Below are positions 7,037 through 15,957 of a stretch of 36,955 bases of DNA, piece after piece. The notes under the pieces are model-generated. The model ran no database searches. It saw nothing but the letters and a program-made list of their open reading frames with translations, and had not been told where the DNA came from. The stretch lies in IMG/VR virus record IMGVR_UViG_2681813166_000002, positions 1-36,955 of that record, one strand, 5' to 3'. The stretch is from a virus (lineage: Duplodnaviria > Heunggongvirae > Uroviricota > Caudoviricetes). Every line of letters starts with the position of its first letter. Position 1 is the first letter of the stretch. The translations under genes and the position numbers were made by a program.

Positions 7037-8455
7037 TTAGAAAATAATGTTTGCTATATCCGAGATAGCATTTAAAGAACCTCTGTGGTCACTTCCTGTT
7101 TTAGGTAAAATATAGGAATATCGAGGGTCTTCATTATATGTTAACTTCCAGTGTTTTCCATCGCTTGACGCACTGAAACCTAAGTCCTTTAAATTTCTTT
7201 GTGTTGCGCTATCCATGCTTCTGTAACCTGTTAAAGTCCTTTTAAGTAATTGGCGGCGACTCTCGGTTTCTTTATTGTATTCATTATTGGCAATTAGGGA
7301 TGATAAGATATGGTAGCTTCTACCAAATTCATTTTTATTTTTTATGGCAGTTTTTAGTGCGTCAATAATTATATTTTTGATTTCTCCATCAAAAAAGTCA
7401 GTCTCTTCACCAGCATTAAGCACAATGCTTCCTTGGGCTGAAGCTTGTGATTGAAGAGTGCGTACTCTGTGCTCTAAAGAGGAGATCTTATGCTTAAGAT
7501 CTTCTATTTGGTCATCTTTCGCAACATTATCGGCTTCGTAAAGCGCCATCAGTTCGCGTGTGTATTCTCCTCTTTCTTTGAGTGAGTTAATAGAGTCTTT
7601 CGTTTTTCTGGTTTGTATCTCACTCCATCCACTATCTGAGACAGGAGCCATTGTAGTCGTAGCTCTTACAACATCATCAAATAACTCATCTTCAAATTCT
7701 TTTGCGGTTTTCTCACCACGGCGATAAAAACTGATATTTTGACCCCGTGGCCAATAGATACCAACAGCACCAGCATAGGCATTTTTAGCATTTGTCTCAT
7801 TTTTTAGCTTAATAGAAAATAGTCTATTGCTAGGCTCAATTAATACATGTGCTAATCCGCATACCTTTCTTGCAAGGCGTTCTGGGATGATATTGTGAGC
7901 ATGTTCATTAAAAAAATACTTGGAGCTAACGTATATTATTGGTAGTCTGTTGTCAGTTTCACCATTTATAACTTTAGCTGCTATATTTAAATGTTCATCA
8001 GTATCATCTAAGGAATGAGGTTCGACTGACACCTTGAAAATATCATCAAGACCACCAGAAAATTTATCAATCAATCTCATAACAACTAATGGTTTCTTAG
8101 GTTGCGGGGCTAGATAAGCTGCATCTTGGCTTACAACGCTAGATTCCACCTGAATCCACATGGTATCAGTTTTGAGATTTTTATTAATTGAAATATCTGT
8201 TACCCATTTGTGTGGCTCAGATATTTTCGAATACCTAAAACAGCCTAAACTAGTATCTTTGTTTTTATAAGTTATTATATCAATTCTTTCATTTTTAGAC
8301 TCTATGAAGTACTCCTCGCTTTTATAATCACATACTAATTGTGCTGGAATAAAAGTTGTATGTGGTGAGTCGTTTACCCAAGAAAAACATTCATTAAAGA
8401 TCTCAGCTAGAGATGTGGAGTTTGAAACATAAAAACCAGTTGAGAAATATTTCAT
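7037..8455 (-). CDS. Hypothetical 472-aa orphan protein, candidate accessory or defence gene
   Basis: Long intact ORF in markedly AT-rich DNA, opposite strand to flanking phage genes; AAGGAAA RBS 7 nt upstream of ATG; no motif I recognise. Confidence 0.75.
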   Translation of the reverse strand: MKYFSTGFYVSNSTSLAEIFNECFSWVNDSPHTTFIPAQLVCDYKSEEYFIESKNERIDIITYKNKDTSLGCFRYSKISEPHKWVTDISINKNLKTDTMWIQVESSVVSQDAAYLAPQPKKPLVVMRLIDKFSGGLDDIFKVSVEPHSLDDTDEHLNIAAKVINGETDNRLPIIYVSSKYFFNEHAHNIIPERLARKVCGLAHVLIEPSNRLFSIKLKNETNAKNAYAGAVGIYWPRGQNISFYRRGEKTAKEFEDELFDDVVRATTTMAPVSDSGWSEIQTRKTKDSINSLKERGEYTRELMALYEADNVAKDDQIEDLKHKISSLEHRVRTLQSQASAQGSIVLNAGEETDFFDGEIKNIIIDALKTAIKNKNEFGRSYHILSSLIANNEYNKETESRRQLLKRTLTGYRSMDSATQRNLKDLGFSASSDGKHWKLTYNEDPRYSYILPKTGSDHRGSLNAISDIANIIF

Positions 8456-11026: not shown

Positions 11027-11141
11027 TCCAGGCTTGCGGGGAGCATCAACTCCGTGCTTTGTCGTTAAATTACCCCGTGAGCCTGATTTCTGACATTTAA
11101 CGTCCCGGCCTTTTGTCGGCGGCGAAACATTGGCTATTCAT

Positions 11142-11447
11142 ATGCACGAAAAAGAGAGCCTTGCCGGAGCGTTCTGGCTCGTTTTGCTGATCATCGCAGG
11201 TTGGGGCGGTCTGGTCCGCTACCTGATAGATGTGAAGCAGAGTAAAGCAACGTGGAGTTGGATAAATGCTCTGGCTCAGATAGTGGTATCAGGATTCACC
11301 GGTGTTATTGGTGGCCTGATCAGCATCGAAAGTGGATTCAGTATTTACATGATTCTCGCGACAGCGGGGATTAGTGGTGCGATGGGTTCGGTTGCACTGA
11401 CGTACTTCTGGGAACGACTGACAGGGGTGAAAAATGCAAAATCTTAA
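11142..11447 (+). CDS. Holin (three predicted TM segments)
   Basis: Hydrophobic segments AFWLVLLIIAGWGGLV, INALAQIVVSGFTGVIGGLISI, IYMILATAGISGAMGSVALTYF; immediately upstream of the endolysin; possible dual start (TTG 11130 / ATG 11142). Confidence 0.7.
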   Translation: MHEKESLAGAFWLVLLIIAGWGGLVRYLIDVKQSKATWSWINALAQIVVSGFTGVIGGLISIESGFSIYMILATAGISGAMGSVALTYFWERLTGVKNAKS

Positions 11448-11910
11448 TCCTCAGCGTAAGGCTTTCCTCGATATGGTGGCATGGTCAGAAGGAACGGATA
11501 ACGGACGGCAGAAAACCAGAAATCATGGTTATGACGTCATTGTAGGCGGAGAGCTATTTACTGATTACTCCGATCACCCTCGCAAACTTGTCACGCTAAA
11601 CCCAAAACTCAAATCAACAGCAGCCGGGCGCTACCAGCTTCTTTCCCGTTGGTGGGATTCCTATCGTAAGCAGCTTGGCCTGAAAGACTTCTCTCCGAAA
11701 AGCCAAGACGCTGTGGCATTGCAGCAGATTAAAGAGCGTGGCGCTTTACCGATGATTGATCGCGGCGATATCCGGCAGGCAATCGACCGTTGCAGTAATA
11801 TCTGGGCTTCTTTGCCGGGTGCTGGTTACGGTCAGTATGAACATAAAATCGGTGACCTGATTTCCCGGTTTAAAGAGGCTGGTGGGGTGGTAAATAAAGT
11901 TGAGCTATAA
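11434..11910 (+). CDS. R: Endolysin, lambda R-type lytic transglycosylase
   Basis: QRKAFLDMVAWSEGTDNGRQKTRNHGYDVIVGGELFTDYSDHPRKLVTLNPKLKST... matches my recollection of lambda R. Confidence 0.93.
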   Translation: MQNLNPQRKAFLDMVAWSEGTDNGRQKTRNHGYDVIVGGELFTDYSDHPRKLVTLNPKLKSTAAGRYQLLSRWWDSYRKQLGLKDFSPKSQDAVALQQIKERGALPMIDRGDIRQAIDRCSNIWASLPGAGYGQYEHKIGDLISRFKEAGGVVNKVEL

Positions 11911-12286
11911 GCTGGTTATCGCTGCATTCTTCTTTACTGTCATCGGTTCTTTCATCTGGTCTGCCAACCACTACTACAGCAAATATCAGCACGAAAAGAA
12001 ACGTGCTGATGAGGCTGTACAAAATGTTGAATCTGCAACAGCCATTACCCGTAACGTCCTGCAATCACTGCAAATCGTCAATACAGTTATAGAGGTTAAC
12101 CAGCATGCAAAACAGCAGATCGCACTGGAGTCACAGAGAACCCAGGAAGATATCAAAGTGGCTGTTGCGGATGATGATTGTGCTTCACGTCCTGTGCCTG
12201 CCGCCGCTGCTGACCGGTTGCGGAAGTACGCGGATAGTTTACGTGCCAGTTCCGGCGGTACCACTACCGGCGAACCTAACCGCTGA
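11900..12286 (+). CDS. Rz: Rz-like i-spanin (N-terminal TM, coiled coil); apparent TTG start
   Basis: N-terminal LVIAAFFFTVIGSFIW helix followed by a charged helical region; follows the endolysin. Confidence 0.6.
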   Translation: MSYKLVIAAFFFTVIGSFIWSANHYYSKYQHEKKRADEAVQNVESATAITRNVLQSLQIVNTVIEVNQHAKQQIALESQRTQEDIKVAVADDDCASRPVPAAAADRLRKYADSLRASSGGTTTGEPNR

Positions 12287-12428
12287 AACCCCTCAACCGG
12301 TTATTCCTGATCCATTGACCTACGGTGGAAGCTTGGATTTGAATGTGAGTCTGTTGTCGGCTCTGGCTGCCTGTAATAGGGATAAAGCTGATATTCATAA
12401 AATTGAGGCAGAGAGGAGCTGGCCATAA
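12171..12428 (+). CDS. Rz1: Rz1-like o-spanin lipoprotein in the +1 frame of Rz, extending past the Rz stop
   Basis: Signal plus lipobox MMIVLHVLCLPPLLTGC, proline-rich mature part. Confidence 0.55.
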   Translation: MMIVLHVLCLPPLLTGCGSTRIVYVPVPAVPLPANLTAETPQPVIPDPLTYGGSLDLNVSLLSALAACNRDKADIHKIEAERSWP

Positions 12429-12719
12429 AGCTGTAAAGCGGAAAGACCGCGGCAAGTAGTGCCAATGCAGCAGTAATTACGCTGCCCCGAATACCCAAAG
12501 TTGCTGGTAGCCAGTTTCAGGTAAAAAGCTGATAGCGCGCTGGTGAGGGTTAACGGGAAGAAGCGCGCTGGTGCCCCAGGTTGATCGCCGGTCAGCTTTC
12601 GGTTAGTGGTGAGGGATTCACGAGATACCTCTGACACATGGTTTCAAGGGCATGAGCGCGGCCACTGCGAGAGTGTGGCAGGCATTACAGCAGGCATTCA
12701 CCGAGTACCTGCGATAATG

Positions 12720-13115
12720 TTACGCAATGAGGCTACCAGCTAATGTACATAAATGCGGCCAGAGTGGCGTAAGAACAGTGACATGATCTGATAGTGATGA
12801 CATTAATTTAATGTATGAGTTTGAGGCGCTCTCTTTAGATGGAGCCGTTTTAATTTCGTCAAGTTTGTTATTAATTTCATTTTTTAATTTTTCATCAATG
12901 TTCAAGTTTAATAATTGAATTTTAGTTTGTTCTAACACAGTTAGCGCGTCTAAGCTGATAACTTGAACTGAAGAAAACTTATTATTGTAAGCTTCATCGA
13001 AGCGAATGCCTACGTCATATCCTACCGATGTTATGTTAGAAAGGTGATTTCCAAAACCCTTTTCAATATAAATCCCTGTAGAGGGCAGAGAAGGTGCATT
13101 TTTGTCTTTACTCAT
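12720..13115 (-). CDS. Hypothetical 131-aa protein (moron between lysis and packaging genes)
   Basis: Minus-strand ORF whose 5' two-thirds lie in AT-rich DNA with its own AT-rich upstream region; helical, charged repeats (IDEKLKNEINNKLDEIK). Confidence 0.45.
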   Translation of the reverse strand: MSKDKNAPSLPSTGIYIEKGFGNHLSNITSVGYDVGIRFDEAYNNKFSSVQVISLDALTVLEQTKIQLLNLNIDEKLKNEINNKLDEIKTAPSKESASNSYIKLMSSLSDHVTVLTPLWPHLCTLAGSLIA

Positions 13116-13256
13116 TTGATGTCCACCAATTTTAAGTTGATTTCAAAGTAACATTTACAACCTTAGGTTTGTGATGGTCAATCATTATCTATCCAGAATG
13201 AGATCTCATACAGGTCATTTGTTTATTGCATATACACTACCGAAGAGAATCTTACA

Positions 13257-13607
13257 ATGCCACCACGAACACCAAAAGCCTGCCGCGTCCGCGGTTGCCG
13301 CCATACCACGACTGACCCGTCAGGCTATTGCGAAAGCCACAAAAGTGAAGGCTGGAAGCAATACAAGCCGGGCCAGTCCCGCCATCAGCGTGGTTATGGT
13401 TCGAAGTGGGACGGTATCCGGGTGCGTGTCCTGAAGCGTGACAAAGGCCTGTGTCTGTTATGTCTGCGTGCTGGTGTGGCGCGTGAAGCGAAAACCGTTG
13501 ACCACATCATCCCTAAAGCACATGGCGGCACTGATGCCGACAGTAATCTGCAGAGTCTGTGCTGGCCGTGTCATAAGGCGAAGACGGCCCGTGAACGGCT
13601 TAAGTGA
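13257..13607 (+). CDS. HNH endonuclease (terminase-associated)
   Basis: 116-aa ORF with paired cysteines (CRVRGC...C; CLLC...CWPCH) and DHIIPKAHGGTD...N motif; immediately upstream of terminase. Confidence 0.85.
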   Translation: MPPRTPKACRVRGCRHTTTDPSGYCESHKSEGWKQYKPGQSRHQRGYGSKWDGIRVRVLKRDKGLCLLCLRAGVAREAKTVDHIIPKAHGGTDADSNLQSLCWPCHKAKTARERLK

Positions 13608-13632
13608 TAATAACTCTCAACTGTCTGAGGGG

Positions 13633-13692
13633 AGGGGCGGGTCAAATCTCTGTGACCTGACGTCTTCCGGACTGCCCGCCCCATCGTTTTTT
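13633..13692. promoter_or_regulatory. GC-rich inverted repeat with T-tract between HNH and terS; candidate cos region or terminator
   Basis: GGGGCGGG (13633-13640) and CCCGCCCC (13674-13681), then TTTTTTT. Confidence 0.3.
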
Positions 13693-13732
13693 TATACCCG
13701 CGAAAAATGAAATTTAACCAGGAGTGCCGCAT

Positions 13733-14227
13733 ATGGCTGGAACGGCGGGGCGTTCCGGGCGTCGCCCCAAGCCAACGGCGCGCAAGACGCTGGCCGGAAA
13801 CCCCGGCAAGCGAGCCCTGAACAAAGATGAACCTGTTTTTACGCCCATCAAAGGTGTTGAGCCACCAGAGTGGTTCGCTGAAGAAGATCTCCCTCTCGCC
13901 ACGATCATGTGGCAACTGACAACCAAAGAACTCTGCGGTCAGGGCCTGCTGTGCGTGACTGACCTGGCGGTACTTGAGCGGTGGTGCGTGGCCTATGAGT
14001 TCTGGCGACGTGCCGTGAAAAATATTGCCATACAGGGCAACACCATCACCGGTGCAATGGGCGGCAGGGTCAAAAATCCGGAGCTGACCGCCAAAAAAGA
14101 ACAGGAGTCCGAGATGAGCAGCACGGGGGCAATGCTCGGACTCGACCCCAGCAGCCGCCAGCGTCTGATTGGCCTGGCGGGGCAGAAGAAAGCCACTAAC
14201 CCGTTTCTGAAAATTATCGAATCATGA
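13733..14227 (+). CDS. Terminase small subunit
   Basis: Basic N-terminus [30 protein letters not shown] typical of P27/HK97-type TerS; GGAG RBS; ATGA overlap with terL. Confidence 0.8.
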
Positions 14228-15957
14228 GCCGGAAATCTTACCCCAACGTAAATGCTGCAAATCAGTATGCCCGGGATGTCGTGCGCGGAAAGATTGTTGC
14301 CTGCCAGTTTGTGATTCAGGCCTGCCAGCGCCATCTTGATGACCTGATGGCGGAAAAAAATAAGTCGTTTCGTTACCGCTTCGACAAGGACCTGGCTGAA
14401 CGGGCCGCCAAATTTATTCAGCTGTTGCCGCACACCAAGGGTGAGTGGGCATTTAAGAGGATGCCCATCACGCTGGAGCCGTGGCAGCTCTTTGTGATCT
14501 GCTGCGCGTTTGGCTGGGTCAATAAAGGTACCCGGCTGCGCCGCTTCCGTGAGGTGTATACCGAAATCCCACGTAAGAACGGCAAATCGGCAATCTCTGC
14601 CGGTGTCGCCCTGTATTGTTTTGCCTGTGATAACGAGTTCGGCGCGGAAGTGTATTCCGGTGCCACGACGGAGAAACAGGCATGGGAAGTCTTTCGTCCG
14701 GCAAGACTGATGTGTAAACGCACACCCATGCTGATGGAAGCGTTCGGGATTGAGGTTAACGCCTCAAACATGAACCGTCCGGAGGATGGTGCGCGTTTTG
14801 AACCGCTGATCGGTAACCCCGGTGATGGTTCATCACCCCACTGTGCGGTGGTGGATGAATATCACGAGCACGCCACAGATGCGCTTTACACCACGATGCT
14901 TACCGGGATGGGGGCGCGACGTCAGCCACTGATGTGGGCTATCACTACCGCCGGGTACAACATTGAGGGGCCGTGCTACGACAAACGGCGGGAAGTCATC
15001 GAGATGCTCAACGGCTCGGTGCCTAACGATGAACTGTTCGGGATCATCTATACCGTTGATGAAGGTGACGACTGGACCGACCCGCAGGTGCTGGAAAAAG
15101 CCAATCCAAATATTGGCGTGTCGGTTTATCGCGAATTTTTGTTAAGTCAGCAGCAGCGTGCGAAAAATAACGCCCGTCTGGCAAACGTCTTTAAAACAAA
15201 ACACCTCAATATCTGGGTGTCGGCGCGTTCGGCGTATTTCAACCTGGTGAGCTGGCAGAGCTGCGAGGATAAATCACTGACCCTTGAGCAGTTCGAGGGG
15301 CAGCCGTGCATTCTGGCCTTTGACCTGGCGCGTAAACTGGATATGAACAGCATGGCGCGACTTTATACCCGCGAGATTGACGGTAAAACGCATTACTACA
15401 GTGTGGCCCCGCGTTTCTGGGTACCGTATGACACGGTGTACAGCGTCGAGAAAAATGAAGATCGACGGACAGCCGAACGCTTTCAGAAATGGGTGGAAAT
15501 GGGCGTTCTGACCGTTACCGATGGTGCGGAGGTGGATTATCGCTACATCCTCGAGGAGGCCAAAGCGGCGAACAAAATCAGTCCGGTCAGTGAGTCACCC
15601 ATCGACCCCTTCGGGGCGACCGGGTTGTCACATGACCTTGCTGATGAAGACCTGAACCCCATCACTATCATTCAGAACTACACCAACATGTCCGACCCGA
15701 TGAAAGAGCTGGAAGCGGCAATTGAATCGGGGCGCTTTCATCATGATGGCAATCCCATCATGACCTGGTGTATCGGCAACGTGGTCGGCAAAACCATTCC
15801 GGGTAACGATGATGTGGTGAAGCCCGTCAAAGAGCAGGCGGAAAACAAAATTGACGGTGCAGTTGCGCTGATTATGGCGGTTGGCAGAGCCATGCTGTAC
15901 GAGAAAGAAGACACGCTGTCTGACCACATTGAGTCCTATGGGATCCGCTCGCTTTAA
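14224..15957 (+). CDS. Terminase large subunit
   Basis: 577-aa ORF with ATPase-like region ([11 protein letters not shown]) and C-terminal nuclease-type region; standard position. Confidence 0.9.

Follow-up and report, generated by a model that had tools for sequence, protein, structure and literature searches.

What is a solitary minus-strand gene doing between the lysis and packaging genes of a phage when all of its neighboring genes lie on the plus strand? The question is raised by the IMG/VR virus record IMGVR_UViG_2681813166_000002, which we analyzed over positions 1 to 36,955 (36,955 nt, hereafter the window). The gene is an open reading frame (ORF) of 131 amino acids (aa) at 12720..13115 on the minus strand, and these coordinates run from the ATG (13115-13113) through the stop codon (to 12720). 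Its RefSeq homologue, WP_054627256.1, is annotated as 'hypothetical protein'. An earlier note, drawn from the sequence alone, had bracketed this ORF at 12700-13160 as transcribed against the flow of the late operon, and had proposed an independently expressed moron at the position where lambda carries bor. The ORF was found as described, with Rz/LysC on one side and the HNH, terS and terL genes on the other. The comparisons reported here support reading positions 12679-13256 as a horizontally exchanged single-gene cargo cassette (moron) of an Escherichia coli lambdoid prophage. They indicate that the ORF is a genuine gene under purifying selection. Its product belongs to an uncharacterized family of ~130-aa proteins, predicted to consist of two beta-helix coils followed by a four-helix bundle with a near-invariant Tyr and His. 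As to what the protein does, the best-supported guess places phage exclusion by the prophage first, a decoy or regulatory role on the side of the phage next, and then a Bor-like conversion role.

The limits of the cassette were set by alignment with a sister prophage in APEC E19025 (L002). Identity was ~92% up to position 12678 and resumed at the HNH start codon at 13257, so the cassette measures 578 bp. Between these shared flanks, the sister prophage has unrelated DNA with a 93-aa minus-strand ORF. The left anchor of the slot is a conserved, apparently non-coding element of ~250 nt (12430..12678, plus strand) that lies outside the cassette, and the right anchor is the HNH gene. In E. coli C3728 (L039:2874-3671), an S1-family peptidase occupies the slot between the two anchors; it matches the PADLOC single-gene defense candidate PDC-S45 (E = 3.6e-102). 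In SC418, which has the same left flank, the slot is taken by two hypothetical genes on the plus strand, and a Nu1-type terminase gene follows. The left flank is common to L002, L038 and L039, and the HNH gene is also found in L002 and L039, with other genes in the slot of each. Cargo at this junction is thus replaced in close relatives, as is typical of a moron, and the 131-aa gene was carried by only two of 5426 complete E. coli genomes.

The same unit recurs in another genus. The DNA shared between the window and its counterpart in Pseudescherichia vulneris starts ~100 nt ahead of the ATG and ends 41 nt beyond the stop codon. The P. vulneris prophage has an unrelated terminase module, and the gene is again antisense, between lysis genes and terS. 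Direct evidence of arrival by recombination was found at the left cassette end (12679..12717, plus strand), where 13 codons (QALQQAFTEYLR-stop) survive from the end of a late-strand 74-aa gene. This gene is intact in the related viral contig L025 (6399-6623, minus strand), where it ends in ...KALQQAFSECLQ-stop, so the 13-codon scar represents the neighboring gene of the donor phage. The proposal of a moron at the junction of lysis and packaging genes is therefore supported by sister prophages with other cargo, by recurrence in P. vulneris and by conservation of the gene itself.

Base composition also differed between the cassette and its surroundings, which is a further mark of a moron. The GC content of the cassette was 35.6%, compared to 51-58% in the flanks; in 200-nt windows, it was 0.29-0.365 over 12700-13199 and 0.51-0.585 on both sides. 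The ORF, which occupies the most AT-rich part of this region, had a GC content of 35.1% (30.3% at third codon positions), against a mean of 49.4% for the whole window. By section, GC content was 36.5% in codons 1-53, 30.5% in codons 54-100 and 39.6% in codons 101-131 plus the stop codon, and it was 32.6% in the 5' intergenic region (13116-13256). These values agree with the claim of the earlier note that the 5' two-thirds of the ORF and its upstream region are AT-rich.

The slot was not always limited to one gene. In several homologous prophages, it contained further small genes in the same antisense orientation (L004:7095-7520; L027:4788-5961; L032:6542-6802), encoding a DUF6530 protein (9.3e-46) and ORFs of 71, 83, 86, and 89 aa. 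Multiple cargo genes can thus gather in one slot.

An AT-rich ORF of this size could be spurious or decaying and without function, and two observations fit such a reading: the gene is rare in E. coli, and its product has no database annotation. RefSeq nevertheless annotates the ORF in both complete E. coli genomes that carry it. A run of 131 open codons has a chance of ~6e-5 at the local composition, where ~7% of codons are stops (arithmetic from base frequencies). A word-indexed protein search returned a 99% cluster, traced to 105 index blocks of the assembly collection, and one equally long homologue, 60% identical, in P. vulneris; carriers included bovine, avian, and human E. coli isolates. 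In a codon-level comparison with the P. vulneris homologue, the rate of synonymous substitution (dS) was ~1.26, near saturation, and that of non-synonymous substitution (dN) was ~0.28, giving a dN/dS ratio of 0.22. Over codons 101-131, there were 13 synonymous and four non-synonymous differences (dN/dS 0.057). The start codon is fixed by the MxKDKN N-terminus, which is kept between the two proteins, and by a GGTGGA Shine-Dalgarno-like sequence (13127-13122, minus strand) 6 nt before the ATG. Full-length homologues were present across Enterobacterales, the structural model became confident once the family alignment was supplied, and the gene was still intact in a prophage remnant truncated by IS1. 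Given this pattern of conservation, the spurious-ORF reading is effectively refuted. The earlier note had accepted that its interpretation would fall if the ORF were conserved in no related element; the ORF proved to be under purifying selection and to belong to a family.

The truncated remnant is that of E. coli UTAK-5 (L001, chromosome 1572330-1581230); UTAK-5 and strain a7 both have a copy with 99% identity. Here, IS1 lies directly upstream of the endolysin gene, and the prophage is located beside a disrupted yejO. The holin and early genes are missing, yet the 131-aa gene and the packaging genes are intact.

We characterized the family by an exhaustive HMMER search of 1.84 billion (1.84e9) representative proteins. 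The family profile yielded 31 matches at E <= 1e-3, of which eight reached E <= 1e-10; nearly all were 117-138 aa long and aligned end to end. One of the 31, the leucine-rich repeat protein P0017, was judged a spurious member, and the family amounts to about 30 clusters. The named sources were Enterobacter, Serratia, Rahnella, Klebsiella, Hafnia, E. coli, Shewanella, and Photobacterium, and all proteins were annotated as 'hypothetical'. E. coli carries a second type of the family, 39% identical to the window protein. Four members matched phrog_16834, a family of unknown function. A literature search found no paper on WP_054627256 or on PDC-M14, a defense candidate discussed below.

The fold was predicted with AlphaFold2. 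The mean predicted local distance difference test (pLDDT) score was 81 with the family alignment and 65 with three sequences. Strands were placed at residues 13-18, 24-31, 35-40, and 46-53, forming two parallel beta-helix coils, and helices at residues 55-70, 75-89, 94-109, and 112-130, forming a four-helix bundle. The earlier note had described the protein as helical, which fits residues 55-130 of the model; residues 13-53, on the other hand, are predicted as the four beta-strands. Its second statement, that the protein has no recognizable domain, holds for the window protein in Pfam, PHROGs, NCBIfam and PADLOC but not for the family, as seven of the 31 members matched Pfam Beta_helix/NosD (best E 2.5e-7). 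One member, P0018, scored 30.7 bits against the TIGR03804 repeat model (cutoff 19.45). The C-terminal bundle is marked by the signature Y-x9-H-x-T-x3-P-x2-P-x-L. Among 94 short and long relatives, Tyr101 was kept in 93 and His111 in 90; the model places His111 in the loop between helices 3 and 4. Matches of the window protein to HEAT_ECM29, NheB/C, and MnuA were far below cutoffs and were dismissed, and a sequence-profile search of the PDB returned nothing beyond spurious matches to repeats and RecA.

The protein is most likely soluble and cytoplasmic, since it lacks both a hydrophobic N-terminus and a confident membrane segment. The N-terminus (MSKDKNAPSLPSTG) is hydrophilic, with a mean hydropathy of -0.7 over the first 20 residues, and the maximum hydropathy over 19 residues of the protein is 1.35. 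The only Cys is residue 123. A tail-anchored membrane protein, considered in view of the C-terminal 19 residues (hydropathy 1.35), was rejected as the primary reading. The family median for this segment is 1.12, several homologues have charged residues in it, and AlphaFold2 packs it as helix 4 of the bundle.

The genomic address of the family was reproducible. In seven of eight enterobacterial prophage lineages examined, the gene was antisense between the lysis and terminase genes, whatever the packaging module. The seven were E. coli P0001, in combination with any of three holin/endolysin sets; P. vulneris (60% identity, Terminase_2/6); L025 (54%, HNH/P27); L026 (53%), where ~2.4 kb of other DNA precedes the HNH and terL genes; E. 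coli P0088 (39%, Terminase_2/3); L027 (37%), where the gene is convergent with Rz; and Klebsiella P0016 (32%, DUF2280/Terminase_3). The terminase types found alongside the family gene were thus P27/TerL, Terminase_2/6, Terminase_2/3, and DUF2280/Terminase_3. In most of the seven lineages, the gene directly abuts terS or the HNH partner of terS. The eighth lineage, Serratia P0008, is also a prophage with the gene antisense, but located between methylase and nin-type genes instead. With one slot shared by seven lineages, address and orientation are a property of the family and not of one phage. Prophages, IMG/VR contigs and bacterial islands were the only places where the family was seen; a tblastn search with three members did not find it in 50,697 deposited phage genomes, a result that is uninformative on function.

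Expression of the gene from signals of its own is plausible, judging by the sequence around it. The 5' region of the cassette (13116..13256, minus strand) is AT-rich and is bounded on the right by the HNH start codon. Within it, we read by eye a weak sigma-70-like candidate promoter on the minus strand (TTGACC at 13181-13176, a spacer of 17 nt, and GTAAAT at 13158-13153). The -10 block of this candidate has a conserved counterpart, TTTAAT, in the P. vulneris and L025 cassettes. Overall, ~100 nt upstream of the ATG align with these two cassettes, including an AGG(T/C)T(G/T)T(A/T)AATG block. A perfect 12-bp palindrome, ATGAGATCTCAT (13198-13209), lies just upstream of the candidate promoter and holds a GATC Dam site; the P. 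vulneris cassette retains its central AGATCT, and the palindrome may act as an operator or be sensitive to methylation. On the other side of the gene, RNA folding placed a hairpin of 13-15 bp at 12683..12719 (minus strand), starting at the first base after the stop codon. Its sequence is 90-95% conserved in P. vulneris and L025, with differences that are unpaired or change U-G to C-G, and it is a possible terminator or RNA-stabilizing element of the minus-strand transcript. With a weak candidate promoter and a hairpin that has no U-tract, independent expression is no more than plausible.

Evidence on function came from distant relatives and their neighborhoods. The C-terminal bundle of the family also ends proteins of 190-270 aa that have an unrelated N-terminal domain. 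Some of these reside among defense genes. P0042 lies between a restriction–modification system and TIR, RelA_SpoT, DUF4238, and trypsin genes; P0055 lies with ThsB_TIR, a TacA toxin–antitoxin pair and AbiEi on a ParAB element; P0061 adjoins a caspase-WD40 protein; and P0046 is near an integrase and a CHAT protease. In Shewanella, P0024 lies beside Hachiman (HamA plus helicase) and a Gp49/HTH pair. P0065 consists of an N-terminal AbiTii domain (2e-27) followed by the family bundle, and adjoins an AAA_15/21 ATPase. AbiTii has been described as a module that stands at the N-terminus of abortive-infection proteins, ahead of effector (HEPN) domains to which it is fused (PMC3710099). Weak colinear matches to PDC-M14B (1e-5 to 0.08) were obtained for P0018 (1e-5), P0011, and P0033. 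PDC-M14B belongs to a putative two-gene defense candidate from a 'guilt-by-embedding' screen (bioRxiv 10.1101/2024.01.29.577857).

Other relatives come with an N-terminal half that is either separate or fused. In Shewanella (L005:7593-8396), in the locus beside Hachiman, the family gene starts 3 nt after a 134-aa gene that encodes an N-terminal domain and more beta-helix coils. A similar gene pair, 30 nt apart, adjoins a prophage integrase in Photobacterium (L008:2417-3217). The partner proteins are 125-134 aa long, with an N-terminal 'NIHELYD..PNPF.W' domain plus beta-helix coils. Both halves are fused in one polypeptide in P0023 (268 aa) and P0012 (189 aa), and the Shewanella and Photobacterium pairs may be either a split gene or a two-gene system.

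We favor the reading that the prophage encodes a phage-exclusion function and that the conserved C-terminal domain carries it out. The 131-aa gene would be expressed in the lysogen from its own weak, AT-rich promoter, and its product would act in phage exclusion or in a manner akin to abortive infection. The part doing the work would be the conserved bundle, as an effector or a partner-binding domain; larger defense-island proteins end in the same module, behind a variety of N-terminal domains, AbiTii among them. Target recognition or oligomerization would fall to the short beta-helix part. The argument is one of guilt by association, and several findings weigh against it. The window protein has no significant match in any of the four databases named above, including PADLOC; a consensus promoter scan gave no good minus-strand promoter between the ORF and the HNH gene; the post-stop hairpin has no U-tract; and PDC-M14 and PDC-S45 are putative defense candidates. 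The defense-island contexts amount to about six hand-inspected loci of distant relatives with no enrichment statistic, which is why we put the defense reading a little under one half. A bolder version is more doubtful: that the ~130-aa proteins are the minimal form of a new single-gene anti-phage family, and that the Tyr/His four-helix domain is an undescribed effector module, elsewhere coupled to AbiTii or SH3-like sensors and parked antisense in prophages to protect lysogens.

The gene might instead serve the phage, which we consider unlikely. Its product would be a truncated decoy that titrates or poisons longer host proteins of the family (~270 aa; P0023- or PDC-M14B-like), or convergent transcription would modulate read-through from lysis to packaging genes. 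A decoy is consistent with the long forms P0023 and P0012, which have the same C-terminal half behind an added N-terminal domain and further beta-helix coils, with the split two-gene versions in Shewanella and Photobacterium, and with the enterobacterial prophage forms, which are consistently without the extra N-terminal part. The hits listed, however, included no long-form member in E. coli. The antisense orientation and the separate upstream region argue for expression outside the late program, whereas anti-defense proteins are usually needed early in infection. A regulatory role is consistent with the location of the gene inside the late operon, where it is convergent with Rz in L027; strong purifying selection on the protein implies that the product matters and not the act of transcription alone. 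An effect on host physiology or virulence, such as Bor-like serum resistance or altered surface properties, would leave phage defense out altogether. The gene lies at the position and in the orientation of lambda bor, its AT-rich foreign composition is typical of conversion genes, and the range of animal and human isolates among its carriers is in keeping with such a role. Yet the protein showed no similarity to Bor (BLASTP E = 10). It has no signal peptide, lipobox Cys or confident membrane segment, so a surface role is unlikely, and its relatives are not pathogen-specific, as they come from environmental Shewanella, Photobacterium, Serratia, and Rahnella as well as from soil metagenomes. We regard a conversion gene of this type as improbable.

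A more specific alternative concerns the bundle itself, which might be a divergent HEPN-type RNase resembling c2405 (with the His kept, the Arg lost and a fusion to AbiTii), making the protein an RNA-cleaving Abi toxin. In c2405-like HEPN domains, a conserved His stands at the end of helix 3 or in the loop between helices 3 and 4 of a four-helix bundle (PMC3710099). The model of the window protein has this arrangement, an up-down bundle with the near-invariant His111 exactly in that loop, and the AbiTii fusion of P0065 points the same way. On the other hand, a comparison of c2405 (from CFT073) with the family by hhalign detected no similarity, and neither the arginine of the Rx4-6H motif nor profile similarity to a HEPN family was found. 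HEPN membership of the bundle is not supported on these grounds, and an RNA-cleaving toxin of this kind appears very improbable. Phage exclusion through the conserved bundle remains the reading that we place first.

The genes flanking the slot are all on the plus strand. On the lysis side are the holin gene (11130-11447), the endolysin gene (11434-11910), Rz (11900-12286), and Rz1/LysC (12105-12428), the last overlapping Rz. On the packaging side are the HNH endonuclease gene (13257-13607; Pfam HNH 5.6e-15, and annotated as such in RefSeq), the P27-family terS (13724-14227; Pfam Terminase_4 3.9e-20), and terL, encoding the large terminase subunit (14224-15957), after terS. ARAGORN detected no transfer RNA or transfer-messenger RNA genes in the window. 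Elsewhere in the window, a 472-aa ORF on the minus strand (7037-8455) breaks the plus-strand early-right region of the prophage and may be a further cargo gene. The P. vulneris prophage encodes a 495-aa reverse transcriptase (L003:14383-15870; Pfam RVT_1) by its nin-region genes, which may be a retron- or Abi-type defense gene.

The ~250-nt element at the left of the slot, between the LysC stop codon and the cassette, was 87-92% identical in E. coli prophages with other cargo. Five prophages, each with a different cargo downstream, have the same sharp end at ...GAGAGTGTGG. In its most divergent copy, indels were not multiples of three. A hairpin at ~12578-12598 showed three consecutive compensatory pair changes in L040, and Rfam gave no match at E <= 1 for positions 12200-13800. 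Its position is different in phage mEp237 and E. coli BE2-5, where it separates the Q antiterminator gene from a 213-aa cargo gene that precedes the holin gene. The element may work as RNA, as a structured part of the late transcript, or else serve to anchor the exchange of cargo.

The last 35-43 nt of the element (12636-12678, plus strand; CATGGTTTCAAGGGCATGAGCGCGGCCACTGCGAGAGTGTGG) were 90-97% identical in unannotated DNA of very different phages. The copy in Klebsiella phiKO2 is located just before an annotated putative terminator, and that in mEp213 lies inside the pL operon, ~110 nt before an N-like gene. Further copies occur in RothC/D, Providencia PSTCR7lys, Hafnia yong1, and Stx2c phages. 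These positions suggest a transcription-control or recombination signal.

Prophage cargo genes are a main reservoir of undiscovered anti-phage and host-modifying functions. Here, an orphan 'hypothetical protein' is placed in a defined family, for which a fold is predicted, two residues are near-invariant and the genomic address is reproducible; the limits of the cassette are set precisely, and the family is tied to defense-island proteins and an AbiTii fusion. If the gene protects against phages, the defense repertoire would gain a new effector domain, and the lysis/packaging junction of lambdoid prophages would be a place to mine. If it does not, it would be an ordinary moron.

Several known systems can be set beside the window protein. 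Its N-terminal 40 residues look like two PbH1 coils of the right-handed parallel beta-helix repeat proteins (Beta_helix/NosD, TIGR03804). Such proteins usually have seven or more coils, compared to two here, and their families have no counterpart of the helical C-terminal domain. The window sequence itself matched no PbH1 model, although relatives did and the predicted strands fit two coils. The last coils and the bundle correspond in the same register to the C-terminal ~100 positions of the PDC-M14B profiles (261-275 positions), as seen for three family members. PDC-M14B is about twice as long and has a partner gene A, whereas the window gene is solitary. The window protein did not match PDC-M14B at E <= 0.1, and there was no adjacent PDC-M14A gene, so it does not qualify as a PDC-M14 member. 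Membership of AbiT is likewise not indicated, as the window protein has no AbiTii match and the window contains no adjacent partner gene. The link to AbiTii proteins (PF18864) is through P0065, where the order of AbiTii and family bundle mirrors that of AbiTii N-terminal to an effector (PMC3710099).

The closest parallel in genome organization is with morons. A moron is an independently expressed cargo gene inserted into a phage operon, as quoted in PMC2629481. Like the cassette in the window, lambdoid morons are present in some phages, replaced or absent in close relatives, and of foreign base composition. Lambda bor is expressed from the prophage. Its product is a lipoprotein, which distinguishes it from the window protein, without a signal sequence and predicted to be soluble. 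The analogy drawn with bor in the earlier note was one of position, and as such it proved accurate: bor is likewise a single minus-strand gene directly after Rz/Rz1 and before the packaging genes.

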